Source of the DNA: a virus
Taxonomy: Duplodnaviria; Caudoviricetes
Length of the DNA stretch: 59,564 bases
Virus record (IMG/VR): IMGVR_UViG_3300032313_000319
Span: 1-59,564 of that record
Reading direction: 5' to 3' (one strand)
In this document: in pieces, positions 7,001-59,547 of the stretch
Layout of the letters: each line of letters starts with the position of its first letter
How positions within the stretch are numbered: position 1 is the first letter of the stretch
Position numbers and translations under genes: made by a program
The notes under the pieces: model-generated
Database searches by the model: none
Told to the model about the DNA's origin: nothing
The model's input: only the letters and a program-made list of their open reading frames with translations

Positions 7001-10000
7001 AGTCAAACGATAGACCTGTCTGTCCTGCTTCTTGTGCAATAGCCCTTACGTATGCATCCACCTGGTCTTGAGCTGCTCCTGCTGCAAATAGCTGGTTTGA
7101 AACGGCAGCTAGGGCTGCCTCAGCTTGACCCTTAGTAGCATTCTTAATTGCATTAATTTGATCTGCAAAACCTGTCTTAAATTCTTCGCTAGAACGAAGC
7201 TCATTAATCTTCGATGCCTCATCTGCACCACGAGCTGCAGCGGTTCCCTGCTCAATATTTTGACCAAAAGCAGTTGTCTTAGGGGTAAAGCCCAGAAGCT
7301 CTCCAGCCTTCTTCATCTTTTCTGCGGTCATGAACGCAGTATCGCCTAGACCACTAATCTTCTTCTTCTGATCTTCTTGTGCCTTTATAATAAGTCCAAC
7401 TACTCCTGCGAGTATTGTGAAGCCTGTAATAATTATTCCAATTGGACCAAGGAATCTAAGAACCATCTTACCCAGGTTAAGTAGTCCACCAGAAAACGCT
7501 GCACTGTTTACCATTGCTGCTTTGGTTTGAACATTTTGAATTGCTAGACCTGAAATCAAAGCCCTTCTCTGAATAAGCTCAAGCATCTTGGACTGAGTAA
7601 GTAGTTGTGTTATTTGCATTAAACCAAACAGCAGTCCAGAGAACTCAAATATTTTTTGAGAGATCTGACCAATAGATCCTCCAGCCATAACCCCAACACC
7701 AGCTAGAGATGTTAGTGCAAAAGTTCCCTGCATAATGGTGCTGTTTAGCTTGTCTAGCCTAGACTGCGAAGACTTTATAGAAGTAGTCTGCTCTTCAGTA
7801 GCTAGGGTAGCCTGTGCTGTAGCCTGAGCTCTTTCTCTTTCCTCTTTTCCAAAATCTGTTCCAGGAGCTGATGCTCTACGAGAACCTCGCCTGGTTTGTG
7901 TTTGCGATGCAGTGTCTGCCTGATAGGCAGCAATAGCTCCAGGGTCTGTTGTTACTCTTCTTCTTCCAACCTTGACTGCACCGCTGGCATTTCTGGTTCC
8001 TGCTGCAGTAGCTTCAGCAAGATCTTCTCCAGCTCTCATGGCATCGTCAGAGCCTTCACGAACACCAGCAGCTACACTTTGAGAAATGGCTTCGTACTCT
8101 GCAGATGGGGAGTTAATCCCCAGACCATCCGACATTCCCATAAATAATATTTGTGCTAGCTCTGTTGCAAATTGATTTGCTCGCTCGTTAGCTTTAACCA
8201 GAATTGCTGCAAAATCCTTATTTTTTCTAAGATCTCTATATGGAACACCTTCTGCACCAGTCATCATGCTGACGGATTGTGGAGTAAATGAGGTTGCCCC
8301 TGGGGCAGCACTTCCAGTAGCTTGAATTGCAAGTCCTCCAGGCAATGTTGGTCTGCGATCTTTAGCATCTGCCACTGTTCTATATTGCGACTTTGCTTTT
8401 TCAAGTGCCGTCTTCGTAGCACCCTCAAACAGTTCGCCTATTGCACCCTCTACAATCTGATATAACGCTGGGTCTCCCACAGCCTCTTCTCCAGCTTTTC
8501 TATATCCCTCAATTATTAGCTGAATAAACTTTTGAGCTTCTGGATCATTTGGATCCACTCCGTAGTTTTGACTCAGGGCAGCGAGGAACTCATCTCCTCC
8601 AGTAGACTCTAGGTAGTCTGCTGCTTCATTGCCAGTCATCTTTCCAGTATTCAGTGCTCTAGGTGCAAGAGCAACTAGCTGACTAAAGGCTTTTATTGGT
8701 CCAGTGGCCTCTTTCAACATCTTAGCAACTATACTGGTGCCAAAGCCTAGTCGGGCCATCTCTTCACCTAGGTAATGGGCCTGCTCCACTGTCAAATCTA
8801 TTGTTGGGCCTAGGTGTGTGAGGTTTACACCAGTAAGTGCGGATGCATCTCCACTTACAGAATCTGGGCCACGGAATGCAACTGTAGTTCTAGCAATTCC
8901 AACTATTCTTTCAAACTGTGGTACCATTTCAGCAAGTTGTCTTTGCAGACCAGTAGCGGTAAGCCTCTTTCCAGACTCAGCAATACTTTCCATTGCATCG
9001 GCTGCTAGCCCTAGGATTCCTGGGATTGCCTTGTCGAGCTGTACATATGGTGCCAGTGCAGCATCTCTAGACATTGGAGCCCTAGGAACGTTTGACTTTG
9101 CAAATCCAGGAATATCTCCATAAATCATTTGCTGAATTATTCCAGAATACTTTTTTGCCTTGTCTGCTGGAATCACTGCCTCTCCAGGACTTAGCATAGC
9201 TGGCATAACATCTCCAGCACCCTTTGGTCCTGGAACACTCACGACCCCCTCAGCATATCCTGGAATTGCTGCTCCAGTCTGCTTTGGCTTAGATGGCTTA
9301 ACTGCAGAGTGAACAGCATGGAACCTAGACCAGTCAACAGACAGACCTTGACGCAATCTGCCGATCATGTCTTGGTAAGCCTTGGCTTCTTGTGGATTAG
9401 ATAGCTTAAATCCTGCAACAGTTTGCTCTAGCAAAGGAAGAACTCTCTGAATTTCTCCAATCATTCTCTGGTGATACTGCTGAGGAGTTAGGTTTTGCAT
9501 TAGTGCAAGTGTAGACTCAGCAAATGCCCTCTTTGCCCCACCCTTGATACCAAGGAGGTTGATCATTGCCTGGTCTTCCATAGATGGAAGGCTTTCTGCA
9601 TAGTCTCTTAGACCAGATGCCCTAGAGAATACACCTGCAGGTCCTACGTCTGCTACGGTGTCACCAAATACATTGGAAGCTGACAAATCTTTATCAACAC
9701 GAAGTAGTGATGCAACCAGCTGCTTGAAGTACTGGTCTTCATTAAACATAGCCATTGGGTCATTATTAATAAAGCTTGCATCAAGTGCTGACTCTAGTGC
9801 TAGGAATCTACGTTGCCTTGTTGGATCTTGTGGGTCACGAATAACAACTATTCTCTGCTCTGGTGCCTTTAGACCATGAGCCTTGCGAGCAATTTCTGTT
9901 GCTCTCATTTCTGCAACAGCAGCCTTCTCATCCATTACTGGCTTTACAAAAACCTTTTGTCCATCTGGTCCCATGTAAACTCCACCAAGACCAAAGATTG

Positions 10001-12305
10001 GGAAGCTGTGACCAGAAGTTGGGGATAGCTGGTGTCCATAGTTTGTAGGTGGAACATCTCGGTAGCTGCTTTGTAAGAACATTTCGTAAATTTGTTGTGC
10101 AGCATCTCTGTTCTTTTGAGTGCTCTTTCCAGATCTAGGCATTCCAAGCATTACACCTTGGCTAAATCCAGGAAGGTTTCCAGCAATCATACCCTGAATA
10201 ATTGGAGCATACTTCTTTGCTGCATCGGCTGGGATGACAGCCTCTCCTGGAGATAGGACTGCTGGAACAATGTCGCCAGCACCCTTAGGCCCAGGAACAG
10301 AAACAATACCAGAAGCAAGCTTTAGGCCAGCTCCTTGAGCAATACGCCTTCCAGTGTCAAACCTTTGCTGCTCATTAAACGCCTGACGATATACGTCTCC
10401 TAGCCTTTGTACGGCACCTGCCTCAGTAGAGAATACTTGGATAAGGTTCTGATGCACTTGTTCTAGAGAAGCTGCTACAGCTGCTGCATTTAGCTGCTCA
10501 GTAGTCATGTAGTCTAGCTGTTCACCAAGTATTGTTGACTGTTTTCCAGTCTTCATAAATAGTTCACGAACAAAAACAAATCCCTTAATAATGTTAGCAA
10601 TACCGTTGGCTAGTAGACCAAATGTCATAATTGCAATAGGACCAATTGCACCAAACAAGACTGTCAATCCTGTTATAAATGACTTAGCACCATCGCTTAG
10701 CCCATTAAACTTTTCAATAATGCCAGTGGCAAATTCAATAATTGGGGTAAGTAGTTTTAGGAACTGCTCTCCCACTGGAGCAATAGCAAGCTGGAATTCT
10801 TCAACAGCTTTTTTAAATCTAAATGTCGTAGACTCTTCTACGCTTTTCAACTCTTTATTTGATAGCTGAGCTAGCTCTTGTGTAGTAGCATTTGTTAGTT
10901 CTAGAACTCGCTGTGCCTGAGTACCGTCCTGAATTACGTTCTGGAACAGTGTAGATAGACGAGCAAACTGGAACTTTCCAAACAACTGTTCAATTGCCTG
11001 AGCACGTTGAGAAGGATCTAGCTTGTCTAGTGCTTCTGCGAAGTCAACTACTAGTCCCTTTACGTTACCACGGTTAGCAGCATTAATCTCTTCAAGATTG
11101 ATTCCAAATACCTTAAGCATTGTGGATGCCTGAGCAGTTGGGTTAATGATGGATGCAAGACCTGACTTTAGTGCGTTAGCACCTTCAGAAGCATTAATTC
11201 CACCTTCCTTCATAGCTGTCAGGAAGAAGGCTAGGTCTTCTACGTCTCCACCAAGCTGCTGGATAACTGGACCTGCCTTTGGAACAGCAATGGTCAAGTC
11301 TTCAATAGATGTTACAGTTTGGTTTTCAACTGCGTTAAGGAAGTCAATCTTGCTTGCCAACTTTTCTGTTGCAATTCCGAAAGCATTTGTAAGAGAGATA
11401 GTAGTCTCAAGAGCCTGAGCCTGTTCTACGTTACCAAGCACGGCTAATCTATTAGCTTCTGTTACCTGGTCAAGAAGCTCAGTTCCAGTCTTACCCATAG
11501 CAGCTGCATCAGCAGCAAGGCCAAGTGTCTTTTCAACAGCAACACCATATTTGGTAAACTCTTTTCCAAGCTCCTTAAGAGTATCAAGCATTTCATTTGC
11601 TTCATCTGGTGTTGTGAATAGATCACCATAAACACGCTTAAATCTAATTGCTTGCTGCTCAAGTTCCATGAATGTCTTGGAAGCCATGTTTCCAAAGATA
11701 GACAATGGAATGGTAAAACCAACCATAAGCTGACGACCAGCCCACTGGGTATTCTTACCAAAGTTTAGAAGGTTTGTAGATCCCTGCTTAAGTAGCTGAT
11801 TAAATATCTGCTGCTTTTGTGCAGTCATTGCTGTCTGAGTGCCAAGGGCTTCCATGTCAAGACGGAGTGGTCTTACAGCAATAGACTTTAGTGCACCATT
11901 AGCATCACGGCCAAGTGAGATGTACTGTGTCTGAAGATCCTTTACTCGCTCACGAGCAACCTTCTCAATAGTGTTAAACTCAGAACGGAAAAGCCCACCG
12001 AAAGTCTTTGTTTGAGAACTAGCATATCTGAAGTACTCTCCCATGGAGAGCTTGTTCTTCTCTAGTGCTCTGGTAAAAGAATCCGATGAGCTTTGGATGG
12101 TCTTTATTGAGGCTGACCATTGGCCTGTAGCATTTAGGTCGTCTAGAAGACCCCGTCTTAGCTTTCTAGCAGATTCTGCATTGGCAGCAGAAGACGAGGA
12201 CATCTGACGTTGGAAGGCTGATATCTGAGACTGCAGCATCTTGATAGACGCTATAGCATCGGAGGTATCTACTCCAAATCTAATATTTGATTCTATATCA
12301 GCCAT
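4020..12305 (-). CDS. Tail tape measure protein with internal kinase-like cargo domain
   Basis: 2761 aa, Ala/Gln/Leu-rich helical. TP901-type TMP core near the N-terminus, hydrophobic segments, C-terminal GTDVVPSMLTPGEFVV motif. Follows the tail chaperones. Confidence 0.9.
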   Translation of the reverse strand: MADIESNIRFGVDTSDAIASIKMLQSQISAFQRQMSSSSAANAESARKLRRGLLDDLNATGQWSASIKTIQSSSDSFTRALEKNKLSMGEYFRYASSQTKTFGGLFRSEFNTIEKVARERVKDLQTQYISLGRDANGALKSIAVRPLRLDMEALGTQTAMTAQKQQIFNQLLKQGSTNLLNFGKNTQWAGRQLMVGFTIPLSIFGNMASKTFMELEQQAIRFKRVYGDLFTTPDEANEMLDTLKELGKEFTKYGVAVEKTLGLAADAAAMGKTGTELLDQVTEANRLAVLGNVEQAQALETTISLTNAFGIATEKLASKIDFLNAVENQTVTSIEDLTIAVPKAGPVIQQLGGDVEDLAFFLTAMKEGGINASEGANALKSGLASIINPTAQASTMLKVFGINLEEINAANRGNVKGLVVDFAEALDKLDPSQRAQAIEQLFGKFQFARLSTLFQNVIQDGTQAQRVLELTNATTQELAQLSNKELKSVEESTTFRFKKAVEEFQLAIAPVGEQFLKLLTPIIEFATGIIEKFNGLSDGAKSFITGLTVLFGAIGPIAIMTFGLLANGIANIIKGFVFVRELFMKTGKQSTILGEQLDYMTTEQLNAAAVAASLEQVHQNLIQVFSTEAGAVQRLGDVYRQAFNEQQRFDTGRRIAQGAGLKLASGIVSVPGPKGAGDIVPAVLSPGEAVIPADAAKKYAPIIQGMIAGNLPGFSQGVMLGMPRSGKSTQKNRDAAQQIYEMFLQSSYRDVPPTNYGHQLSPTSGHSFPIFGLGGVYMGPDGQKVFVKPVMDEKAAVAEMRATEIARKAHGLKAPEQRIVVIRDPQDPTRQRRFLALESALDASFINNDPMAMFNEDQYFKQLVASLLRVDKDLSASNVFGDTVADVGPAGVFSRASGLRDYAESLPSMEDQAMINLLGIKGGAKRAFAESTLALMQNLTPQQYHQRMIGEIQRVLPLLEQTVAGFKLSNPQEAKAYQDMIGRLRQGLSVDWSRFHAVHSAVKPSKPKQTGAAIPGYAEGVVSVPGPKGAGDVMPAMLSPGEAVIPADKAKKYSGIIQQMIYGDIPGFAKSNVPRAPMSRDAALAPYVQLDKAIPGILGLAADAMESIAESGKRLTATGLQRQLAEMVPQFERIVGIARTTVAFRGPDSVSGDASALTGVNLTHLGPTIDLTVEQAHYLGEEMARLGFGTSIVAKMLKEATGPIKAFSQLVALAPRALNTGKMTGNEAADYLESTGGDEFLAALSQNYGVDPNDPEAQKFIQLIIEGYRKAGEEAVGDPALYQIVEGAIGELFEGATKTALEKAKSQYRTVADAKDRRPTLPGGLAIQATGSAAPGATSFTPQSVSMMTGAEGVPYRDLRKNKDFAAILVKANERANQFATELAQILFMGMSDGLGINSPSAEYEAISQSVAAGVREGSDDAMRAGEDLAEATAAGTRNASGAVKVGRRRVTTDPGAIAAYQADTASQTQTRRGSRRASAPGTDFGKEERERAQATAQATLATEEQTTSIKSSQSRLDKLNSTIMQGTFALTSLAGVGVMAGGSIGQISQKIFEFSGLLFGLMQITQLLTQSKMLELIQRRALISGLAIQNVQTKAAMVNSAAFSGGLLNLGKMVLRFLGPIGIIITGFTILAGVVGLIIKAQEDQKKKISGLGDTAFMTAEKMKKAGELLGFTPKTTAFGQNIEQGTAAARGADEASKINELRSSEEFKTGFADQINAIKNATKGQAEAALAAVSNQLFAAGAAQDQVDAYVRAIAQEAGQTGLSFDFANIDFTKVGKDQIVKAAQDSSKLFQDSFEAGFKKGGYEQKEVLGVRSVVKTVDSLSDDAKAAASTFAGTAASSLQALKDGLANNLITAKDFGVGLEGVIGTLKGLDETQLDLVLPDLYKKLGVEDLMKEIPAVGDQLLLLQADAAGIQIPETDKNALKNADKSAKAAQLALRTRTKLKKQVEEQAIAQEKVNKKIEEEALINEQIASANVALADRVVQLENQQYAYDYLIQQGYTAAQAFDLAGDAGLAAGIKAATGAGVAATEWNNMKNLIDQVLKLEKTTPTGPGGGGDKSPLQQAIESLQEQRKEILESNAAFNKLRKAGFDTADAMKAAEDPILAAALATTKVGTKQWADLINRIKETQRLLSKKELQDLLRGGKVEIAEKRAQATVANALTTLGYTAEQIDEVLSDQEFTNTLADDLKDGSINAKEVLNRLSQLKQMAKIDIDIAFATKEGAAEEFQKRYDKVVGYLEAQKQVIEVDFQVQTADENAVIRDAENEIAGIQYKIDDLEAQLTGIEEQEGVINEEYDKRKKALDDVAKANDVIARQQKNQLTLADALSQGDIAAAAKAAQDMRAQSAQDSIAKQGDLLELSKEQQLANLRSKDGRSRKQIEDEVKKLKKDIFVIEEERLEVARESIREAEYDKAVRLESINAQILRWDVLAAKVNEAKLRLTPEEMTAMEYQAGLIADLLDDWNNIEDKTAILTILKRTVDEELGTGGAATTTTTTTTSTTSGGNGGNGAGGNGDEEAVTDAQKSAAALKASGMSISGFIKKQDSAIIDSTLKTKATLEKAGSLIVQTSSSAGEANRFNNLLAASKVTSDNLAKAGSLANNTSSSAGEVNKFANLLQKAISTPTVASALGLGTRSPNNSVPASLTRNTAASTLQAKGIKLARGGMVKYMANGGLFSSLGTDVVPSMLTPGEFVVRRNAVNNFGVDRLKAINSGTYSSDSVYNYEVNINVQSNANADQIASSVIGKIKQIDSQRIKGNRF

Positions 12306-49304: not shown

Positions 49305-49450
49305 ATACGGCGTGTCGCTTGACATCTACCCTGGAAGGGGCTCGGGCCCCAAATGTAACAGAATGATAACTATCTACGAAACACGCTAAAAAAGTCCCAT
49401 AAATGTCAGACCCCTATGGTTAGATAATAGTAGTTAGAAAGGATACACAA

Positions 49451-49615
49451 ATGGATACTCTCAGATACAAGCAGTTGGACTCTCTAAACCTAGTTGAGGT
49501 AAAGAGAGAGTTGGCATTCTTTTTGGAACACGCCCAGCGTGCGAATTGGGATGTGTCTGATGAAACTATCGGATACATGAACCAACTAGATAGTGTTATC
49601 AAAGCGTTATCTTAG
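49451..49615 (+). CDS. Early microprotein (54 aa)
   Basis: AGAAAGGA SD; similar to 50596-50763. Confidence 0.65.
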   Translation: MDTLRYKQLDSLNLVEVKRELAFFLEHAQRANWDVSDETIGYMNQLDSVIKALS

Positions 49616-49757
49616 ACGGCGTGTCACAAACTAAAAATGTCGTACCCCCTCTGTAAATTTATAGTAGTTGGAAAAGGAATGAGCCTCAGCAAATAATCCA
49701 GAAATGGTGAGCCTGAGCAAATAAGTCCCCCAGCGTTGTATTAGAAAGGATAAATAA

Positions 49758-49964
49758 ATGTTTAGAGTAACAACAAGTGGATACCTAGTAGAGTGTGACT
49801 CTTGTGGTAATGAGGAGATCGCTTCCAATCTCCGTATGGCTAAGTCAGCCTTTGACTTCCATGAGTGTTCAGACAAGCCTAACAAGGTGTCTGACTACAC
49901 TTTGGTAGAGGCTAAAGACCCTATTGAGTTGGTCAAGCCTATGTTTAGTACTAACTGGTACTAG
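49758..49964 (+). CDS. Early small protein with CxxC
   Basis: AGAAAGGA SD, 68 aa. Confidence 0.7.
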   Translation: MFRVTTSGYLVECDSCGNEEIASNLRMAKSAFDFHECSDKPNKVSDYTLVEAKDPIELVKPMFSTNWY

Positions 49965-50172
49965 ATGTAGTGGGTGTACTCCTGGTCTACCCCCAGATCT
50001 AGGCTCGGGGGCCCCTAGATGTAGTATGCATACCCTGTTAAGACACTATATATAGATCCCCCAGAAAGTTTATAACAGATTTATAACAGATAGGGTAAAA
50101 GGGGTGTTTTGCTACCTAAAATGTCAGACCCTACCTGTAGATTTATAGCAGTTAGAAAGAAAGGTATCCCCA

Positions 50173-50382
50173 ATGACCACAATGTTCCGCAAGACCACCT
50201 GCAACGGATGCGGTATGTCTCAGACCACCAATGTCTCTTACCGCCTAGACAAGAAGTTGTGGGAGACCACTCACACTCTTGGCGTGTGCCGTCAGCGTAA
50301 GGCACTACTTACCAGAGAACTAGACTTCTCCAAGCCTGGAGCCAGCCTAAGAAACCTAGAATTGCTAAACAGCCTAAACTAA
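50173..50382 (+). CDS. Early small protein
   Basis: GAAAGG SD after promoter 50122. Confidence 0.65.
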   Translation: MTTMFRKTTCNGCGMSQTTNVSYRLDKKLWETTHTLGVCRQRKALLTRELDFSKPGASLRNLELLNSLN

Positions 50383-50431
50383 AATGTCAGACCCCTATGC
50401 TAGATTTTAGATAACTCAGAAAGAAGGAAAA

Positions 50432-50596
50432 ATGATTCAGTCAGTAATCACAGATGACACCAAGGGTATCCTAGTAGCAAAGTTGCAGGGTGTCCTAGAG
50501 CGTGACCTAACCGCTATGGAAGAGGCTATGGTTGAGTATACTCTCACCCAAGTCAGACTAGGCTTAGTTGACCTAGGCTTACAGGAGGTAAAGTAA
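50432..50596 (+). CDS. Early microprotein (54 aa)
   Basis: AGAAGGA SD after promoter 50385. Confidence 0.65.
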   Translation: MIQSVITDDTKGILVAKLQGVLERDLTAMEEAMVEYTLTQVRLGLVDLGLQEVK

Positions 50597-50763
50597 TGGA
50601 GAACTTTCGCAAGTTAGACATTCTCTCACTCTCAGAGGTTGAGCGTGAGGTTGACATAATGATAGAAATTATCGGTGATAGGATTCCTAGTGATGAGGAA
50701 TACAAGCAGGTATCAGAACTAATCAAACTAGCCAACTCGCTTGGCACAAAAAGAAAATGGTGA
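50596..50763 (+). CDS. Early microprotein (55 aa)
   Basis: AGGAGG SD, TAATG coupling. Confidence 0.65.
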   Translation: MENFRKLDILSLSEVEREVDIMIEIIGDRIPSDEEYKQVSELIKLANSLGTKRKW

Positions 50764-50766
50764 TGT

Positions 50767-50964
50767 ATGCACCCTAGGGAATTGCCAGGTATCAGAATCA
50801 CATACCGCCAAGCAGGCAAAAGAATAGATGACGCTTTTGTTTTTGCACCTACTCACGCTTGCACACTTTGCAAGGTAGGCGTTCAGGTCTGGAATGCAGA
50901 TAGATTCTGGGCTAGGCATAAAGACTGCATACCGCTTACCATACAAGAGTGGGTTGGGGTATAG
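50767..50964 (+). CDS. Early small protein
   Basis: 65 aa, CxxC...HxxC. Confidence 0.5.
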   Translation: MHPRELPGIRITYRQAGKRIDDAFVFAPTHACTLCKVGVQVWNADRFWARHKDCIPLTIQEWVGV

Positions 50965-51142
50965 TATTCCAATAATGGAATGGATCGGCCTCGGGGGCCC
51001 CTACATCTAGAGGCTATAATCATTTAAGACACCACATCTAGGATCCCCAGAATGTTATCATTCTGTTATAAAAATGTGGCGTGTGCTACTCAAAATGTCA
51101 GACCCCTATGTTAGATTTTAGGTAAGTAGAAAGAAGGTAAAA

Positions 51143-51301
51143 ATGTCAGAACAGATTTGCGTGTTTTGTATGAACTTGGTGAACGACTATGTTTGCCACG
51201 AATGTAACGACTACAAGGGGCTAATGCCACTTGACGAGGCTGAGAAGTATCTTGGCGAGGACTTTCCAGAGGAATACAAAGTAGCGGATTGGATTAGATA
51301 A
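51143..51301 (+). CDS. Zn-finger-like microprotein (52 aa)
   Basis: CVFC...CHEC; SD after promoter 51096. Confidence 0.7.
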   Translation: MSEQICVFCMNLVNDYVCHECNDYKGLMPLDEAEKYLGEDFPEEYKVADWIR

Positions 51302-51411
51302 TGAGCATCTCAGAACTAGAGGAACTAATCTACAAAATTGACCTAATGCTATCTGAGGACATAATGTCTGAGGGTATTAGTAATCTATTCTCAACCAAAG
51401 AAAGCGAGTAA
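51301..51411 (+). CDS. 36-aa acidic peptide
   Basis: TAATG coupling; ELEELIYKIDLMLSED. Confidence 0.5.
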   Translation: MSISELEELIYKIDLMLSEDIMSEGISNLFSTKESE

Positions 51412-51413
51412 CA

Positions 51414-51524
51414 ATGATTTTTTACAACGGCTTCAACCTACTAGTTGACATAATCCTAGTTTCAGTTGCGGTGTTTGTCACCTATCGCCTAACTAGGAGA
51501 AACAGCCACAAGGCTCCGTTCTAA
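51414..51524 (+). CDS. 36-aa membrane peptide
   Basis: After promoter 51365; LLVDIILVSVAVFV. Confidence 0.55.
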   Translation: MIFYNGFNLLVDIILVSVAVFVTYRLTRRNSHKAPF

Positions 51525-51667
51525 ACGACACGCCGAAGCCAGGACTTGACAAACCTGAGCTTTTGGCCTCGGGCCCCCAACCAAGATCATAAGTAGTTTA
51601 CGAAACAATTTAAGAAACTCCCAGAAATCTCCCCTAAAATGTCAGATAGGTCTGTTATACTTCAGGT

Positions 51668-51835
51668 ATGAAGAAGTTAGGTAAAGCAAATCAAGCAAGA
51701 CGCAAGGCTGAGTCACAGGCTCTATTCCTTGAGATGATGAAGAATCCTCACCTTGTAGTTACCCCCCAGAAATTCAAGGGCACACGCCAGAGCAACACTA
51801 GCAAGGCTATTAGAGAGAGTAGGGATAATGGGTAA
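51668..51835 (+). CDS. Basic microprotein (55 aa), leaderless
   Basis: ATG 6 nt after TATACT of promoter 51640. Confidence 0.65.
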   Translation: MKKLGKANQARRKAESQALFLEMMKNPHLVVTPQKFKGTRQSNTSKAIRESRDNG

Positions 51836-51965
51836 GTATAACTGTTCTAACTGTCAGAGGCTTCTACGCCCAGAGAAGTTTTACATTCAAGGTATCAATA
51901 ATGTCTGTACCCCCTGTTATGCTGTAATGGTTCAGCACCCCTCAGCAAGAAAGTTGGTAAAGTAA
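51828..51965 (+). CDS. Zn-finger-like microprotein (45 aa)
   Basis: CSNC...CTPC; coupled. Confidence 0.55.
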   Translation: MGKYNCSNCQRLLRPEKFYIQGINNVCTPCYAVMVQHPSARKLVK

Positions 51966-52159
51966 TGAGTAAGTATCCTGTAACTGTTCAGCTATCAGGT
52001 AACGATGGCAATGCCTTTGCAATAATGGGAGCAGTAAAGTCTGCCCTAAAAAAGGCTGGGGCAACTAATGAAGAGGTTGACAAGTATCTGGCAGACTCAA
52101 TGTCTGGAGACTATGACAACCTGTTACGTGTAGCAATGCAATGGGTGAATGTAAGATAA
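51965..52159 (+). CDS. Conserved small phage protein
   Basis: DGNAFAIMG.V..AL..AG...SGDYDNLL motif seen in many phages. Confidence 0.75.
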   Translation: MSKYPVTVQLSGNDGNAFAIMGAVKSALKKAGATNEEVDKYLADSMSGDYDNLLRVAMQWVNVR

Positions 52160-52206
52160 ATGTCAGACCCCTGTGGTAATCTTTAACTAACTTAGAAAGG
52201 ATACAG

Positions 52207-52380
52207 ATGAACAGCGACAAGGTATTGGAATACGCAAAAGAGCAAGTAAACGGCGGAAGCCCTTATGCTTTTGCTTTTGGTATGGCTTGGGCTTCCCTAA
52301 GCAAAACCGCCCAAAAGGAACTAACCAAATACGCAGAACAGCAACTAGCCCTAATCAAGGCAGAAAGAGGGGAGAACTAA
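52207..52380 (+). CDS. Early microprotein (57 aa)
   Basis: AGAAAGGA SD after promoter 52161. Confidence 0.65.
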   Translation: MNSDKVLEYAKEQVNGGSPYAFAFGMAWASLSKTAQKELTKYAEQQLALIKAERGEN

Positions 52381-52661
52381 TGGGTTCACTTCAGGCAAGA
52401 GAGATGGCAGAAATGCTATCTATGGAAGACGCTATCGCTTGGCACTTGCAGAGCAACCACTATCCACCTGTGCCACTATCTATGGTTGAGCCTTGTATTG
52501 AGGCTATCAAGAACGCTCTTGCTGGTGACTGGTGGAAGCCTGTTGAGTTGCCTAACCCTGTCAAGTATAAGGGAAGCACTCACGCTCCAACTTCCGCTAT
52601 CCTTGAGCAACACCACCTTGCCCCTTGGCTAGAGCTTGATGAGGAGGGGCTTGAGGACTAA
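52380..52661 (+). CDS. Hypothetical protein (93 aa)
   Basis: GGGGAG SD, TAATG coupling; WHLQSNHYPPVP motif. Confidence 0.7.
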   Translation: MGSLQAREMAEMLSMEDAIAWHLQSNHYPPVPLSMVEPCIEAIKNALAGDWWKPVELPNPVKYKGSTHAPTSAILEQHHLAPWLELDEEGLED

Positions 52662-52774
52662 CCTCAGCCCTTCTGGGCCCCGAGCCCTGATCACGATCCT
52701 ATAACAGGTTACGATTACGTACTAAAATGTCCTACCCCTAGGCTATACTTTAGTTAGTTAGAGAGGATACCCCA

Positions 52775-53491
52775 ATGCTTATTAGGTCTAAAGATAGGAA
52801 AGTAACTAATGCAGTATCTCCAAATGGTAAAACGCCGACTATTGCGAACACGTTTGGGCTACCTTCTGGTAAGGCTTATTCCTGCCCTGGAGCCACATCT
52901 GTATGCGAGAAAATCTGTTACGCTGGCAAACTCGAAAAAGTCTACAAGGGTGTAAAGGATGTTCTAGTCAACAACTGGAACCAACTAAAAGACGCTAAGT
53001 ATGAGACTATGGTTTCACTACTTGATGAAATGATTATTAGTTTCAAGTCTGACTGTGACAAGCGTAATGCAGACAAGCTATTCCGAATTCACTGGGATGG
53101 CGACTTCTTCAATGTCACTTACACTATAGCTTGGGCTACTGTAATCAAAAAGCATTCTGATGTTCAGTTCTGGGTATACACTCGCAGCGACTTTGCGGTT
53201 CCAATTCTAAAGGGTATCGCTAATCTATCGCTATACTTTTCTACTGATGATGACAACTGGCAGCTGGCAAGCAACCTAAAGACACTTCATGATGTAAAGC
53301 TTGCTTATCTTGCTAACAACTTTGCAATGGGTAAAGAGCGTATGTTGTCTATCACGCCTAAGTCTGCAATTCCATGCCCTGAGAATGCTAAGAAACTACC
53401 ACTGATTAGTGACAAGGGTTCCGCCTGTGTTACCTGTGGGCAGTGTGTGTTTGAGCGTAATGACATCCTGTTCAGTGCTAGTAAAAAGTAA
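52775..53491 (+). CDS. GP88-like (radical-SAM-related) phage protein
   Basis: FGLP...SCPGAT..C...CYA, FRIHWDGDF, FWVYTR, C-terminal CP...C..CG.C. Confidence 0.7.
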   Translation: MLIRSKDRKVTNAVSPNGKTPTIANTFGLPSGKAYSCPGATSVCEKICYAGKLEKVYKGVKDVLVNNWNQLKDAKYETMVSLLDEMIISFKSDCDKRNADKLFRIHWDGDFFNVTYTIAWATVIKKHSDVQFWVYTRSDFAVPILKGIANLSLYFSTDDDNWQLASNLKTLHDVKLAYLANNFAMGKERMLSITPKSAIPCPENAKKLPLISDKGSACVTCGQCVFERNDILFSASKK

Positions 53492-53520
53492 TTGACAGCA
53501 TTCTGGATAAGGAATATAAT
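53492..53520 (+). promoter_or_regulatory. Consensus sigmaA promoter
   Basis: TTGACA-17-TATAAT. Confidence 0.75.
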
Positions 53521-53525
53521 ATATT

Positions 53526-53597
53526 GTGGATAATATAGGAATCATAATTGTGCTTCTCTTAATGGCTATAACACTAGTGTTAACCAATAAGAAATAA
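53526..53597 (+). CDS. Possible 23-aa leaderless membrane peptide
   Basis: GTG 5 nt after TATAAT; MDNIGIIIVLLLMAITLVLTNKK. Confidence 0.4.
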   Translation: MDNIGIIIVLLLMAITLVLTNKK

Positions 53598-53598
53598 A

Positions 53599-53681
53599 CT
53601 CATAGGGGAATATGAGACGGTCCGCTCCTTTCTAACTAACTGACATGCGGACCACGTCCTGGCCATGACGTAAAACTGGCC
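53599..53681 (+). ncRNA. Candidate structured RNA (hairpin + anti-SD-loop hairpin + pseudoknot)
   Basis: CTCATA/TATGAG; GGTCCGC/GCGGACC; ACGTC/GACGT with GGCCA/TGGCC. Confidence 0.5.
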
Positions 53682-53787
53682 ACCTCAACGCCCGAGGGCA
53701 GATCACAATTTGATAACCAATTACGATTAAGATATAAAATGTCCCACCCCCAGAGTATAATGGTCTTATCAGTTAGAGAGGACAGTA

Positions 53788-53910
53788 ATGGACGAGCAAG
53801 CAGCAGAGATTAGAGAAAACCTAGCAGAATACTACGCTAACCCAGAAGAGTATTCTCTTGAGGACTTTGAGGACATCTTCCAAGATCGTGACCCGTTTGA
53901 GTTTCTATAA
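53788..53910 (+). CDS. 40-aa highly acidic peptide
   Basis: GAGAGGA SD after promoter 53740; ...EDFEDIFQDRDPFEFL. Confidence 0.65.
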   Translation: MDEQAAEIRENLAEYYANPEEYSLEDFEDIFQDRDPFEFL

Positions 53911-53956
53911 ATGTCATACCCCCAGTTTATAATAATCTAAACAGAAAGAAGGAATA

Positions 53957-54508
53957 ATGGGAACTAGAGGACTAACTAAGGTTGTTTACAAGGGTGAGAC
54001 TATTGTTGCACAGTATGGACAATGGGACCACTACCCAGAGGGACAGGGTGTTACCTTGTTTTACGCTCTGCAAGACCCTGATGTGGTAAAGCGTTTTATT
54101 GAGAAGATTCCACAGATTTACTACCCCAGCGACTCTGATGTAGAAGCAATGTGCAAGCCATTTGAGGATGGTTCTTCGGCAGGTATGATGACCTTTGAGT
54201 CTGGTGATAAGTTTGCAAAGAAGTATCCAACTCTAACCAGAAATACTGGTGGAGAGATTTTCAGGGTAATCGCTGACTGGGATGACTCACCTATCCCTAT
54301 TGTCAGGGACTTGGACTTTGAGAATGACGAGTTGTTCTGTGAGGGTCTTTACACTATCAACTTGGACCAAGAGTTCTTTCACACCCAGTTTAGCAAGTAT
54401 AAGGGTTCTTGGGACATCTCACTCTTGGTTGGCTTTGAGTCTCTAAGGGAGATGAAGGGTCCAGATGACTACCTTGAGAGTTGCAAGGATTCTCAATTAG
54501 TTAGGTAA
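53957..54508 (+). CDS. Conserved hypothetical phage protein
   Basis: MGTRG...QYGQWDHYPEGQG motif; SD. Confidence 0.75.
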   Translation: MGTRGLTKVVYKGETIVAQYGQWDHYPEGQGVTLFYALQDPDVVKRFIEKIPQIYYPSDSDVEAMCKPFEDGSSAGMMTFESGDKFAKKYPTLTRNTGGEIFRVIADWDDSPIPIVRDLDFENDELFCEGLYTINLDQEFFHTQFSKYKGSWDISLLVGFESLREMKGPDDYLESCKDSQLVR

Positions 54509-54631
54509 CACGCTACCCCCAGGACTTGACATCTTGGGGGCTAGTGCCTCGGGGGCCCACAGGATCTTTGTCAATTTACGAAACCTACAAAAAATCCCCC
54601 AAAACTTTGTAGAAAAACTTTGCCCAAATGC

Positions 54632-54660
54632 TTGACATTGACTTACTTTTCTGGGACAAT
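54632..54660 (+). promoter_or_regulatory. SigmaA-type promoter
   Basis: TTGACA-17-GACAAT with extended TG. Confidence 0.55.
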
Positions 54661-54728
54661 TGAGTATCACCAAACGGGGATACATAAATCAAAACAGACC
54701 TTGATAAGAGGTCGGAATAGGAAGCAAA

Positions 54729-54875
54729 ATGTCAAACCTAACTGTTGGCTCACAGTTCACCACCGCTAAGTCTGGCGTGTCTGGTGTTATTCAGGAAGTA
54801 GTAGCAAACAAGAACGGCTCTTTCCGTGTCCGTCTTGATGTTGCTGGTCAGCCTCGCTGGACTACTGTAAAGTAA
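54729..54875 (+). CDS. 48-aa beta-rich microprotein
   Basis: AGGAAG SD; MSNLTVGSQFTTAKSGVSGVIQEV...RWTTVK. Confidence 0.7.
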   Translation: MSNLTVGSQFTTAKSGVSGVIQEVVANKNGSFRVRLDVAGQPRWTTVK

Positions 54876-54982
54876 TGTAAGACTTGGGGGGGTAGCGTTT
54901 CTTATCCTTTCTCTACCCTCCCACTTACTAAAATGTCACACCCCACCCTTACAATAGAACTACCCTGAAAGAAAGAAGACTA

Positions 54983-55204
54983 ATGTCTGGCAAGATTGTT
55001 GCTCTAAAGAAAAACCAACGCCTAACCGTTCGCACAGAGATTTGGAACACCAAGTCTGGCGAGGGTATCAAGGCTGTTGTCCGTAACCCAAACGGCACTT
55101 TTGATGGTGCTACCAACCAGACCCGTTTCTTGGCTATGCCAGAACCAAAGGTCATTGTCAGGACTATTACTGAACCTCGCAAAAAGGTATTCGGTATTTT
55201 CTAG
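54983..55204 (+). CDS. Basic small protein
   Basis: After promoter 54934. Confidence 0.65.
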   Translation: MSGKIVALKKNQRLTVRTEIWNTKSGEGIKAVVRNPNGTFDGATNQTRFLAMPEPKVIVRTITEPRKKVFGIF

Positions 55205-55291
55205 GCAGATGTGCTGGGTATCACAATAAACTACCCAAAATGTCACACCCCTCCCCTATAATGTAATTACCCTAAAAGAAAGCAGAAACAA

Positions 55292-55747
55292 ATGGCTAGA
55301 ACCCTTTCCGTAAAAATCCCAACCGCAACTCTAATCGCTGACATTGAGGCAACTATTGCCAAGATTGACGCTGATGTTGAGGCATACCCTGAGAAGGTAA
55401 AGCAGTATGAGGCAGACCTAGCAAACTACAAGACTAGCGTTGTCAAGTTTGCTACTGACTACATTACCGCCAACGCTGACAAGATTGGCTTTGACTATGA
55501 CAGCACCATTCGTCTAGTTCAGAACCACTACTCTCAGAACAAGTTTGAGATTGAGTTGGACATTTCGGTTATTGCTAACTTCCCTGAGAAGCCTGTAAAG
55601 CCAAGCCAGCCAAACCAGAACGAGCACTTTGGCAGGGAATACACCACTCGCAAGGCAATTCTTGAGAAGAACCTTCGTATCCTAAAGATGACCTCGCAAG
55701 AGGAAGTGAACGCAAGTTCCTACTCCTCTGTGATTGACCTAATCTAA
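55292..55747 (+). CDS. Hypothetical protein (151 aa)
   Basis: After promoter 55241. Confidence 0.8.
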   Translation: MARTLSVKIPTATLIADIEATIAKIDADVEAYPEKVKQYEADLANYKTSVVKFATDYITANADKIGFDYDSTIRLVQNHYSQNKFEIELDISVIANFPEKPVKPSQPNQNEHFGREYTTRKAILEKNLRILKMTSQEEVNASSYSSVIDLI

Positions 55748-55751
55748 GGGA

Positions 55752-55960
55752 GATACACCTGAGTAAGTGGGTAAACTGCTCACCAAACTTCCAACTAACC
55801 TAGGAACGGTTGGCTGTGCTGATGGCTCTAACAGTAGTCAGATGAGCAAGACCTATTAGATGAACCGCAAGGACTCTAAGGGCAAGGATACCACCCTGCT
55901 ATCGGTTGAAGCATAGGTCAGAAATGATACTACCTGATGCCCTCGCTTGGGTGGTTTTTC
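55752..55960 (+). ncRNA. Candidate structured non-coding RNA
   Basis: No ORF of 60 aa or more; pseudoknot motif, GACCTAT/ATAGGTC, TTAGA/TCTAA, CC-GCAA-GG and TCA-GAAA-TGA GNRA loops. Confidence 0.4.
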
Positions 55961-56100
55961 CTTATCTGGATCCTGGCCCTCGGGGCCCGTTACAAAATTG
56001 TTATTTACGATGTCCAATTATTTTTCCCTAGATTCTTTACAATGTCAGACCTTCCCTGTATACTTGTCCTATCAGTAATCCCTAACAGAAAGTAGCCCCT

Positions 56101-57093
56101 ATGGCACACGAACTAGAAACCGTAAACGGACAGACCGCTTTTGCTTCTTTGCGTGAACCTGCTTGGCATGGACTTGGAACCGTCTTCACTGAGGAAGTTT
56201 CCACAGCCGAAATGCTAAAGTTGGCACACCTAGACAATTGGAATGTCCGTCTTGAAGATGTAGCAATTCCAGAAGGCTTTGCCTCTGACCGTTCATTCTC
56301 TTTTGTTACCAGAACCAACCCATTCAACTCAGAACAGAATGATGTTCTTGGTGTTGTTGGTGAGCGTTATGTTCCGCTTCAGAATGAAGACCTATTTGAC
56401 TTTGGTGACCTAATGCTAGACGGCGGTGGTCGCTGGGAAACTGCTGGCTCTATCAAGGGTGGCAGACAAGTCTTTGGTTCTCTTGCTCTTGAGCGTGAAA
56501 CCGTTCTTGACCCTAATGGCGTGTCTGACAAGGTAAACACCTATCTTCTAATCAACACCTCTCATGACGGCTCAGTTGCTATTCAGGCTTCAATCACACC
56601 TGTGCGTGTTGTTTGTGCTAACACCTTGAACCTAGCCCTAAAGGGTAAGGCTAAGCAGTCTTTCAAGATTCGCCACACCTCTACCGCTTCTGGCAAGGTT
56701 GCTCAGGCTAGAGAGGCTCTTGGCTTGGCTAACCTATATATGAATGAGTTTGACAAAATGGCTCAGGAAATGATTAGCAAGGAAATCAACAAGGCTAAGT
56801 TTGATGAGATTGTTGCTCTTGCTTACCCTGCCCCTGAGAAAGACGCTAAGGGTTCATTCAAGAAATACAACGATAAGATTGACTTGATTCAGTCTATCTA
56901 TGTAGGTGACTACAACAAGACCATTGCTGGAACTGCTTGGGGTGCTTTCAATGCTCTGACTGAGCGTTTGGATTGGTATCGCTCTGGGCGTGGTGGTGAC
57001 AACGAGAGTATTCTCGCTGCTGCTTCTGGCTTTGACCCTGTGACTACTGCTGAGAAGAACCGCTTGCTTCAGTTGGTATTGGCTAACGCCTAG
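56101..57093 (+). CDS. DUF932 / TIGR03299-like phage-plasmid protein
   Basis: PAWHGLG, LGVVGERY.P.QN, ETAGS..GGR.VF, YLL..TSHDGS, TPVRVVCANTL, RHT, GTAWGAFNA.TE. Confidence 0.85.
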   Translation: MAHELETVNGQTAFASLREPAWHGLGTVFTEEVSTAEMLKLAHLDNWNVRLEDVAIPEGFASDRSFSFVTRTNPFNSEQNDVLGVVGERYVPLQNEDLFDFGDLMLDGGGRWETAGSIKGGRQVFGSLALERETVLDPNGVSDKVNTYLLINTSHDGSVAIQASITPVRVVCANTLNLALKGKAKQSFKIRHTSTASGKVAQAREALGLANLYMNEFDKMAQEMISKEINKAKFDEIVALAYPAPEKDAKGSFKKYNDKIDLIQSIYVGDYNKTIAGTAWGAFNALTERLDWYRSGRGGDNESILAAASGFDPVTTAEKNRLLQLVLANA

Positions 57094-57277
57094 TCTATTC
57101 CTTCCTGGGTATGAAGTAAAACTGCCCAACAAACATATTCCAAGATCGTTATGGGCCTCGGGCCATAACTACTTAGACAAATACATTTACGAAACTAATT
57201 AAGAAACCCCCAAATTGTTTCCCTAAAATGTCTGACCCCCACCCTATACTTGTAAGCAAGTAGGAAAGGAAGGCAAA

Positions 57278-57469
57278 GTGCCTAGATTTTACATTCAAAT
57301 GAAAGTTGATTTTGCTGGAGAGATTGAGGCAGACTCAAAGGAACACGCTGAGGAATTGGCTTGGACATCTTGGGGTGACACAACAGGAGACGCTATCTCT
57401 TATGACGGTGTTTACTCTATTGATGTTGAGGAACTAGATGAGGAAGATGAGGATGAAGATGACGAGTAA
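57278..57469 (+). CDS. Small acidic protein
   Basis: AAGGAAGG SD; EIEADSKEHAEELA; poly-D/E tail. Confidence 0.7.
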   Translation: MPRFYIQMKVDFAGEIEADSKEHAEELAWTSWGDTTGDAISYDGVYSIDVEELDEEDEDEDDE

Positions 57470-57563
57470 CACTTGGGAACCAACTCCAGGAGGAGTATGG
57501 GATTCTTTCTTTCGTGAGATAGGCTTTGATAACGGAGATAGTGAGGAAGACGAAGATGAGTGA
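57459..57563 (+). CDS. 34-aa acidic peptide
   Basis: GAGGA SD inside the previous acidic tail. Confidence 0.5.
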   Translation: MTSNTWEPTPGGVWDSFFREIGFDNGDSEEDEDE

Positions 57564-57684
57564 TACCTTTACCATTGAAAGACCTGAATACCTTTCGGAT
57601 TCAGCTTGGGAAGCTCTATGCGAAGCTGTTGAGCGTTATGTAGAAGAGTGGGAAGAGTGGGAGGATGAAGATGACGATGACTAA
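57556..57684 (+). CDS. 42-aa acidic peptide
   Basis: Coupled; ends EEWEEWEDEDDDD. Confidence 0.55.
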   Translation: MSDTFTIERPEYLSDSAWEALCEAVERYVEEWEEWEDEDDDD

Positions 57685-57853
57685 GTCTTGGTATGATGAC
57701 CTACCAACTTACGGTGACGGTACTATCTATCTTATGAAGATAAAGGGTGACCCTTATGACAAGTATAGGTGTATGGGGTGTTATAAGACTTGGCTATCTA
57801 CCGCCAAGAAAATGGGACACAAGGAAGCTGCTTGTAGGAGGCAACGAGGATAA
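57665..57853 (+). CDS. Small protein with C2H-C Zn-finger-like motif
   Basis: YRCMGC...H...C; start uncertain. Confidence 0.55.
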   Translation: MKMTMTKSWYDDLPTYGDGTIYLMKIKGDPYDKYRCMGCYKTWLSTAKKMGHKEAACRRQRG

Positions 57854-59088: not shown

Positions 59089-59159
59089 TCATCCCCCTTT
59101 TTGGGCTCGGGTCTATGTTATGTAAACCTATTACTCATAAAAAAGGAATTACGAACTCC

Positions 59160-59311: not shown

Positions 59312-59547
59312 TGCAAGTATATGCAGATAAGAGACCATCAGTAAATTCAACCACATGGACCAGGATCTTCCACAGTGGCAATGCAGAGGTACATGAGTCA
59401 GATCTCTATTACGATTACTATAGAGTTATTATGAAGGATGGATCTGCACCCCCGAAACTTTTCTTTGGAGAGTCTGCATGGATGAATTGCCAACGATATG
59501 TAGTTGACAAGATTGGCATGCAGGGGTATAATGTATTTAGTAAGTAA
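59311..59547 (+). CDS. Hypothetical protein
   Basis: TAATG coupling; KLFFGESAW motif. Confidence 0.6.
   Translation: MQVYADKRPSVNSTTWTRIFHSGNAEVHESDLYYDYYRVIMKDGSAPPKLFFGESAWMNCQRYVVDKIGMQGYNVFSK

Follow-up and report, generated by a model that had tools for sequence, protein, structure and literature searches.

The window analysed here is the whole 59,564-base viral contig IMGVR_UViG_3300032313_000319 of IMG/VR, estimated to be about half complete, and our subject is a pair of hairpins in its early region whose loops are antisense to AGAAAGGA(UA)-type ribosome-binding sites (RBS) of early genes. Large structural genes occupy the minus strand from position 1 to about 46,000, including a capsid protease with about 54% identity to the proteases of large Streptomyces siphophages, and small genes, all on the plus strand and including every neighbour of the hairpins, run from about 46,300 to the window end. 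A similarity search against cultured-phage DNA gave a GP88-like gene as the sole match (Streptomyces and Mycobacterium phages, 66-82%), and DNA runs labelled as freshwater metagenomes contained 19-45% of the stretch's sampled words. The host is probably a low-GC freshwater actinobacterium, since the encoded proteins are actinophage-like and leaderless late genes are predicted. A tRNA and tmRNA scan of the window found none. The features surrounding the two hairpins are as follows (nt, nucleotides; aa, amino acids; ORF, open reading frame).

52752-52767, plus strand: leader and RBS of the GP88-like gene, AGTTAGTTAGAGAGGA, the best candidate target of loop 1
52775-53491, plus strand: GP88-like gene (PF17338, E 4.9e-50)
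53492-53520, plus strand: consensus sigma-70-type promoter TTGACA-17-TATAAT, 12/12 hexamer bases, upstream of hairpin 1
53550-53597, plus strand: possible 15-codon hydrophobic micro-ORF with GTG start and TAA stop, a candidate read from the sequence
53599-53616, plus strand: hairpin H0, stem CTCATA/TATGAG, loop GGGGAA, conserved AUAGGGG
53619-53653, plus strand: hairpin 1 (H1, type A)
53654-53682, plus strand: H-type pseudoknot, the 3' module, ACGTC-C-TGGCCA-T-GACGT-AAAAC-TGGCCA, from a pattern scan
53690-53699, plus strand: short GC hairpin GCCC-GA-GGGC of a recurring intergenic class, without U tract
53770-53782, plus strand: leader CAGTTAGAGAGGA of the downstream 40-aa gene, a candidate match of 12 nt that could pair with loop 1, one of the pairs being G.U
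54632-54660, plus strand: sigma-70-like promoter of ORF48, TTGACA-17-GACAAT with TG, 10/12
54729-54875, plus strand: ORF48, a conserved 48-aa protein with homologs in about 27 distinct contexts
54885-54923, plus strand: hairpin 2 (type B)
54930-54965, plus strand: ATGTC-type promoter (AAAATGTCACACCCC...TACAAT), starting 7 nt past hairpin 2

Hairpin families with a constant loop core

Hairpin 1 closes a 21-nt loop, TCCTTTCTAACTAACTGACAT (53626-53646), which contains UCCUUUCU and AACUAACU, with seven perfect pairs (GGTCCGC, 53619-53625; GCGGACC, 53647-53653), and its fold of -11.8 kcal/mol (z = -4.3) was equalled by none of 200 shuffles. In hairpin 2, TGGGGGGGTAG (54885-54895) and CTACCCTCCCA (54913-54923) form 11 pairs, one of them G.U, around a 17-nt loop (54896-54912; CGTTTCTTATCCTTTCT / CGUUUCUUAUCCUUUCU), at -18.8 kcal/mol (z = -4.4), and again 0/200 shuffles were as good. 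Both loops were unpaired in the predicted minimum free energy and centroid folds. These positions and stems are those given in the original prediction, which had been made from the letters of the DNA, and both turn up again in related contigs, their stems bearing compensatory changes, well beyond what chance would give. Rfam gave no gathering-score match in the whole window, and none at E <= 10 on either hairpin or on the pseudoknot at 53654 within 53400-55000. A terminator scan listed neither hairpin. Their stems are GC-rich, but their loops, of 21 and 17 nt, exceed the roughly 3-8 nt of an intrinsic terminator, and no U tract directly follows either stem (hairpin 1 is followed by ACGTCCTGG, hairpin 2 by CTTACTAAAATG).

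Relatives were fetched through the 183-aa protein encoded between the hairpins (38 loci, 31-79% identity). In these, CCTTTCT recurs in hairpin loops at corresponding positions, on differing stems. The loop core (U)AUCCUUUC(U) is constant while stems covary; CCUUUC(U), usually placed at the 3' edge of the loop, is invariant in three hairpin families and its flanks are not. The third family, type C, was found in relatives only and has a 16-18 base pair (bp) stem, the loop UACCUUUCU(U) and a T-rich tail, overlapping the -35 of the next promoter. On the plus strand of the window, TCCTTTCT has only two copies, both within the hairpin loops. An unselected census of plus-strand hairpins in the relatives returned CCTTTC as the commonest loop hexamer (21/280) and GAAAGG not once (0/280), compared to 1/252 and 12/252, respectively, in opposite-strand hairpin loops, and CCTTTC/GAAAGG was depleted window-wide (18 vs 31.8 +/- 4.9 expected). 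Overall, there are two hairpin families, three in the relatives, that have kept an anti-RBS loop while their stems drifted.

Hairpin 1 is the middle module of an RNA of about 85 nt, composed of H0, H1 and the H-type pseudoknot and sited after the GP88-like gene. A covariance model of this RNA (R1; H0+H1+P2), built on five close sequences, gave 20 matches at E <= 1e-4 in 26 sources (289,055 bases). In the R1 alignment of 17 distinct rows, 96.0% of paired cells could pair, compared to 77.7% after shuffling and 24-44% in slid controls, both-side changes occurred in 15/23 pairs, and 0/500 shuffles reached any of these measures; the figures lean toward structure because the alignment was fitted to the model. 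The H1 stem carried compensatory changes in 7/7 pairs with 100% of cells pairing over 17 distinct sequences, 6/6 pairs of H0 were altered on both sides among relatives, and helix S2 of the pseudoknot module also showed compensatory changes. Type A stems include GGTCCGC(A), GTAGGGATCT/AGGTCCTTAC, TGGTCCACA, TGCAGGC, GTTGGCCTAAC/GTTAGGTCAAC and TGCATAGGGG.

The type B set, chosen for the identical loop plus a stem of 6 or more, was aligned without gaps on the loop (11 sequences); 9/9 inner pairs were compensatory and 100% paired, a result that 0/500 shuffles reached. The exact 17-mer loop was found at 16 loci, with the stem present in 12. The four others (L167, L169, L170, L172) are unrelated contigs in which the 17-mer lacks a stem and reads antisense to an authentic RBS, that of a gene on the opposite strand. 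Elsewhere, the 17-mer loop is also mounted on unrelated stems (GCCCCTTAGCC, GGGGGCGTGGAGT, TTCCGAGTGGGT). Both RNAs are read from the plus, early-gene strand: among 56 CCTTTC-loop hairpins, some chance ones included, internal G.U pairs outnumbered A.C 50 to 8, and G.U pairs would be A.C mismatches on the minus strand, where the fold of hairpin 2 falls to -14.5 kcal/mol. As a separate observation, the more distantly related contig L074, in which a GP88 homolog (L329) is encoded as well, has two adjacent CCUUUCU-loop hairpins at 3478-3580, with 12-bp and 16-bp stems.

Both hairpins lie downstream of sigma-70-type rather than ATGTCnnACCCC-type promoters, as had been predicted (53492-53520 and 54632-54660). 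The first of these promoters sits within an insert of about 110-126 nt that, among the loci checked, only the window and its closest relative L035 carry; relatives and contigs from three runs skip approximately 53473-53599, promoter included. Most relatives have the type A RNA starting a few bases after a stop codon, which belongs either to the GP88-like gene or to a small hydrophobic ORF. At the site of the micro-ORF, between the GP88-like gene and the RNA, L005 and L008 have ATG-started hydrophobic ORFs of 23-25 codons. As hairpin 1 stands behind a stop codon in most relatives and its promoter is confined to the insert, it is as much a module of the 3' untranslated region (UTR) as a free small RNA (sRNA). 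Upstream of ORF48 homologs, an arrangement of TTGACA/TTGATA and a -10 is conserved. Hairpin 2 is the predicted 3' stem-loop of the ORF48 mRNA and shares the ORF48 promoter. A free-standing sRNA, as originally proposed, may arise from hairpin 1 in the window, where it has its own promoter, but is not supported in most relatives, which lack that promoter, or for hairpin 2.

Complementarity to early ribosome-binding sites

Early and late genes differ in their initiation signals. According to our own rough start calls, GAAAG lies upstream of 17/32 early and 2/40 late starts, AGA[AG]AGG upstream of 6/32 and 0/40, and leaderless-like starts account for 1/32 and 13/40, while GGAG/GAGG precedes 13/40 late minus-strand starts; the early figures for Shine-Dalgarno (SD) sequences are biased upward because early starts were chosen with an SD filter. 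The claim that late genes avoid the early SD type was thus borne out. A simple pattern also placed a TATAAT-like hexamer 5-9 nt before the ATG in 13/40 late genes (for example, minus-strand starts 31195, 37353, 38526, 44478, 28262 and 46276), which probably give leaderless mRNAs.

The AGAAAGGA motif has three plus-strand copies in the window (49436, 49743, 52194), each just before an early start codon; the leaders had been predicted as such, with the first and last positions off by one (49437, 52195). As originally claimed, loop 1 is antisense to the GP88-like gene's leader, the match spanning 16 nt and including a single G.U. Their predicted duplex reaches -25.7 kcal/mol, compared to a mean of -14.0 and a best value of -19.6 for shuffled loops. 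A degenerate pattern, AGTTAGTTAGARAGGA, matched two window sites vs 0.14 expected, and 2/100 shuffles reached two. The complement of loop B, AGAAAGGATAAGAAACG, reads like a whole early RBS (AGAAAGGA-UAAGAAA-CG), and RBS+ATG sites within three mismatches of it number five in the complete relative G002 and three in G001, with none for the reversed-pattern control. In G002, 6 of the top 14 sites of the type A loop are early RBS by our own reading.

In three clades, the best partners of type A loops are the GP88 leaders of the same clade, with pairing over 14-18 nt in the window clade, 12-14 nt in L005/L006 and 12 nt in L011. In a permutation of 10 loop-leader pairs, the longest-pairing sum was 111 vs 95.4 +/- 6.6, and 137/20,000 permutations reached it, a figure inflated because the loci are related; using five clade representatives, 4/120 reached the observed value. 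These comparisons suggest that loop and GP88 leader co-vary weakly.

Several other partners were tried and rejected. Scanned against 185,579 species genomes, the exact 17-mer complement of loop B gave 71 hits across many phyla and no enrichment of any taxon or gene, and these candidate host targets were discarded because by our arithmetic, for exact matches only, that is about the chance number for 596 billion bases on both strands. Pairing of loop B with a hairpin loop in the ORF48 5' UTR (GAUAAG) was not kept in relatives, and pairing with the SD of the next downstream gene was weak for type B and type C. The H0 loop CAUAGGGG, read as antisense of the promoter box CCCCTATG, fitted just 3/12 window promoters, and the idea was dropped because boxes of the L005 clade read AGGGT, in the same sense. 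A mimic of 16S helix 45 plus tail by H0+H1 was rejected as well, the GGAA loop not being conserved. The ORF48 5' UTR itself (54667-54728 and relatives) has two hairpins with varying stems, UAUCAAC.../GUUGAUA and UCCCUCUGGGG or GACCU...AGGUC.

Exchangeable 3' modules and a recurrent pseudoknot

The pseudoknot of the hairpin 1 RNA belongs to a recurrent 28-nt element. A strict pattern scan of the window and L002-L039 (346,223 bases) found 45 copies on the gene strand, 26 of them unique, and none on the other strand. Its geometry is compact: S1 of 4-5 bp, a 1-nt L1 that is invariably C, S2 of 6 bp, a 1-nt junction and an L3 rich in A with AAAC at its end; L2 is a single base, which may be U, A or C. 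Compensatory changes were seen in each of the two crossing helices, which makes the element an H-type pseudoknot; in stand-alone copies S1 varies and covaries (ACGTC, TGTG, CTTC, ACAC, CGAC and others), and S2 occurs as TGGCCA, TGGGTA/TACCCA, TGAGCA/TGCTCA and TGGACA/TGTCCA. It starts 4-9 nt past an ORF stop in 21/35 distinct contexts, and in many cases a promoter box follows 2-12 nt beyond its end. The following two window copies stand alone.

55210-55237, plus strand: stand-alone pseudoknot, 5 nt past the stop codon of the gene for the 73-aa protein and directly adjoining the promoter that follows
57101-57128, plus strand: stand-alone pseudoknot, 7 nt past the stop of the DUF932 gene

Stop read-through or frameshifting at the pseudoknots was rejected, as in-frame extensions are just 7 and 19 codons long and there are no slippery sites. 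So was a preQ1-I riboswitch: the element lies past stops rather than in the 5' UTR of queuosine genes, the window has no Rfam PreQ1 hit, and L2, a single variable base, leaves no preQ1-like pocket.

Behind ORF48 homologs, the element occupying the 3' position changes from context to context.

9/27 contexts: standard hairpin 2 loop
3/27 contexts: variant loop AGUUAUU(U)AUCCUUUCG
1/27 contexts: same stem with a 7-nt loop lacking CCUUUC
9/27 contexts: pseudoknot
4/27 contexts: a different structured element
1/27 contexts: region cut off by the contig end

The modules are thus interchangeable behind ORF48, and the anti-SD loop is therefore an added feature of some of them. The different element, of about 55 nt (GTGGCGTTAGACTACATAAAAGGGTGAATCAGAGTCTA...CCCTGCCAC), is conserved and directly follows the ORF48 homologs in L019, L154, L156 and L164. 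ORF48 itself had no Pfam or PHROG match, and a protein atlas placed it in unnamed clusters only, the nearest named clusters scoring 0.85-0.87, no more than a lead. The motif G-x-[IV]-x-[EA]-V-V-x-N-x-N-G-[ST]-F is common to ORF48 and the 73-aa protein encoded next, and the two may be paralogs. ORF48, hairpin 2 and the gene that follows are covered by metatranscriptome contigs from relatives that are 85-95% similar.

Many of the small early genes are preceded by a repeated promoter-like box, AAAATGTCnnACCCC, and a -10-like hexamer, without a -35. Boxes of the AAAATGTCnnACCCC or ATGTCnnACCCC type had 15 matches in the window vs 2.3 expected, 13 of them on the plus strand at 49403-57853. In relatives the box reads ATGTCGGTGG or ATGTCnnAGGGT, and the GP88 gene of distant relatives, which is leaderless, is driven by such a box. 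Most early intergenic regions contain a GC-rich hairpin resembling GGCC-UCGG-GGCC and lacking a U tract, and the usual order after such a hairpin is GATC, a TTTACGA motif and an ATGTC promoter box, forming a modular cassette. A further hairpin class, right after the 183-aa gene, has covarying stems and a constant loop, CUUGACA(A), equal to the -35 consensus; a complementary UGUCAA(G) lies 30-40 nt downstream, past the GC hairpin, and the two could form a long-range pseudoknot or be paired DNA half-sites. Apart from these classes, a second perfect TTGACA-17-TATAAT promoter lies at 59504-59532, 30 nt before the contig end, where the sequence it drives is cut off, and the structural genes include a 2,761-aa ORF (4020-12305, minus strand).

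49350-49375, 50005-50030, 51010-51030, 51575-51595 and 52675-52695 (approximate): GC-hairpin class
54545-54558, 55990-56010, 57143-57165 and 59100-59115 (approximate): GC-hairpin class, continued
54516-54540 and 54569-54574: CUUGACA(A)-loop hairpin class, also in L002, L005, L008, L010, L011, L029 and L035

Explanations for the loop and comparison with known systems

With the structure, strand, conservation and complementarity of the hairpins established, we infer, as the likeliest mechanism though at slightly less than an even chance, that the loop acts by pairing with the AGAAAGGA-type RBS and represses early translation. The exposed loop would pair with the SD region of early mRNAs and block 30S binding; an alternative outcome is that the loop-leader duplex would be cleaved. 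For hairpin 1, the chief partner would be the short GP88-like leader on the same transcript (52752-52767), reached either in cis, by a 3'-to-5' fold-back, or in trans, by a structured 3' piece that outlasts the mRNA and then pairs. Leaderless and AGGAG-led late mRNAs would escape.

A number of results weigh against repression by pairing. The leaders predicted as targets of hairpin 2 are antisense to its loop core, but no window site lies within three mismatches of the full loop B complement, and the best window duplex of loop B reaches -16.0 kcal/mol, compared to a shuffled mean of -15.0 and a best of -22.1. The type A loop of G002 did no better (best targets -16.1 to -14 vs -16.2 to -18.8 for five shuffled loops). 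For 20/24 hairpins, the best own-locus duplex was not clearly better than other-locus or shuffled duplexes; this comparison was informative for window hairpin 1 and L004 only, because pyrimidine loops pair with purine-rich leaders in any order. The proposed covariation of loop and leader, weak in the permutations, fits poorly in L008, L092 and L156, whose loops match other GP88 leaders better than their own. A CCUUUC-loop hairpin was found within 330 nt downstream in 9/68 distinct GP88 loci (GP88-containing contigs: the best 80 of at least 599), the promoter before hairpin 1 lacks conservation, and replacement of the anti-SD hairpin in 14/27 contexts behind ORF48 means that there is a generic 3'-end role independent of the loop. 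One RNA contig (54859-55057) reads through hairpin 2; the metatranscriptome contigs, which show neither RNA ends nor levels, are the sole RNA evidence, and gaps in their cover and differences in depth were given no weight.

An alternative explanation, possible though less probable than repression by pairing, is that the hairpins are generic 3'-end modules serving as terminators, exonuclease blocks or processing sites between independently promoted early genes. On the same footing, the conserved loop would be a protein-binding or processing determinant and no antisense seed. The pseudoknot and each of the three hairpin types occupy the interval from a stop codon to the promoter that follows, and the exchange of elements behind ORF48, the T-rich tails of the relatives' type C hairpins, which overlap the next -35, and target searches that were mostly no better than with shuffled loops all agree with such a role. 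However, a purely structural role leaves unexplained why the loop is kept on unrelated stems in three families, loops of 17-21 nt without a U tract misfit an intrinsic terminator at hairpins 1 and 2, the RNA contig continues past hairpin 2, and no candidate binding protein was identified. It seems unlikely that the hairpins instead form a global switch, in which the CCUUUCU loops would be copies of the anti-SD tail on nuclease-resistant 3' structures that accumulate as early mRNAs decay and mask the AGAAAGG-type SDs of all early, perhaps also host, mRNAs, passing ribosomes to leaderless and AGGAG-led late mRNAs in an early-to-late switch made of RNA only. The early/late SD dichotomy would suit it, as would the resemblance of the loop B complement to a consensus early RBS including the start codon. 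The loop core also equals the presumed 3' tail of the host 16S rRNA (...CCUCCUUUCU), so that the same extended SDs would be recognised. On the other side, there are one or two hairpins per genome (two in the window, one on the early strand of the complete relative G002), AGA[AG]AGG precedes 6/32 early window starts only, the 17-mer target is at chance level in the species genomes, and to titrate host mRNAs, the RNAs would be needed in demanding stoichiometric amounts.

Anti-SD sequences are cleaved by toxins of the MazF type, and the loop might be a mimic or decoy of the 16S tail that occupies a factor recognising the anti-SD, such as a toxin of that kind or a ribosome maturation or binding protein. 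The invariance of the CCUUUC(U) core, and not of its flanks, in all three loop families speaks for a decoy, but we regard it as improbable: the residues 5' of the core are UAU, UUAU or ACAU where the 16S tail reads ...CACCU, the helix-45-like GGGGAA loop of H0 is lost in the L005, L006 and L008 clades, the flanks match phage leaders in several clades, and no such factor was identified. Most improbable by far is that the loops are SDs of minus-strand micro-ORFs, which the original prediction had named as its refutation, or that the inverted repeats act as DNA. The loops do read AGAAAGGA on that strand, and the 17-mer of the four stemless contigs is a genuine opposite-strand RBS. Minus-strand micro-ORF SDs were nevertheless excluded at both hairpins, where the minus strand offers no start codon (ATG, GTG or TTG) 4-13 nt downstream of AAAGGA; the excess of G.U over A.C, the weaker minus-strand fold of hairpin 2 and the plus-strand orientation of every neighbouring gene agree with this, and the covariation of the stems favours folding over a fixed protein-binding DNA site.

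The findings add covariation-supported families that are absent from Rfam, namely the H0-H1-pseudoknot RNA, the type B and type C anti-SD hairpins and the compact post-stop pseudoknot, and these occur in abundant uncultured phages whose DNA is present in freshwater-labelled runs. If repression by pairing is true, this phage group would use an RNA loop directed at the RBS to control one class of its genes, with leaderless late genes escaping. The type of SD and leaderless translation would then be tied to infection timing in a way that can be tested. A pseudoknot set 4-9 nt past stops might likewise represent a new kind of punctuation, or of 3'-end element, in phage mRNAs. Its compact geometry is similar to that of retroviral and luteoviral frameshift pseudoknots and of preQ1-I; unlike the frameshift class, it follows stop codons rather than slippery sites and opens no extended frame.

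Several known RNAs offer parallels to the hairpins. RsaE/RoxS, RNAIII and the actinobacterial 6C RNA present a C/U-rich loop on a stable stem that pairs with SD purines; they are chromosomal, with their own terminators and CCC-type motifs. In contrast, the window seed is UAUCCUUUCU, phage-encoded and mostly located within mRNA 3' ends, and has no Rfam match. In the hok fbi-tac fold-back and in lambda sib retroregulation, a 3' element controls an upstream gene on the same mRNA, and a cis action of hairpin 1 on the GP88 leader would be analogous; unlike the end-to-end pairing of hok and the RNase III dependence of sib, the predicted contact here is loop-to-leader, and there is no homology. T4 RegB is a protein endoribonuclease that cuts GGAG and inactivates early mRNAs at their SD while later mRNAs escape; the analogy is functional only, as here an RNA loop would mask AGAAAGG.

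Together with the sRNAs that have C/U-rich loops, the c4 RNA is the nearest mechanistic precedent; it lies upstream of its target and is excised by processing. In phages P1 and P7, c4 blocks the translation of ant through loops that pair at its RBS, on the same transcript (PMC12197685). The window RNA is similar in having loops complementary, by prediction, to the RBS of a gene on the same transcript. Unlike c4, it has no Rfam sequence or structure match, and hairpin 1 lies 3' of its best candidate target. Searches of titles and abstracts for a phage anti-SD RNA or switch returned no such case. In Cluster K mycobacteriophages, the SAS/ESAS elements provide a conserved extended RBS motif before non-structural genes, and its authors did not decide between RNA and protein as the binder (PMC3203893). 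The SAS reads GGGATAGGAGCCC and is not known to have a partner RNA, whereas the window leader is AGTTAGAAAGGATA-like and has a complementary RNA loop in the same genomes. If the pairing is real, the loop would thus be a candidate RNA partner for the 'start-associated' leader motifs of actinophages. Overall, the RNA families are new, and regulation by an anti-RBS loop would be a variation on a known principle.

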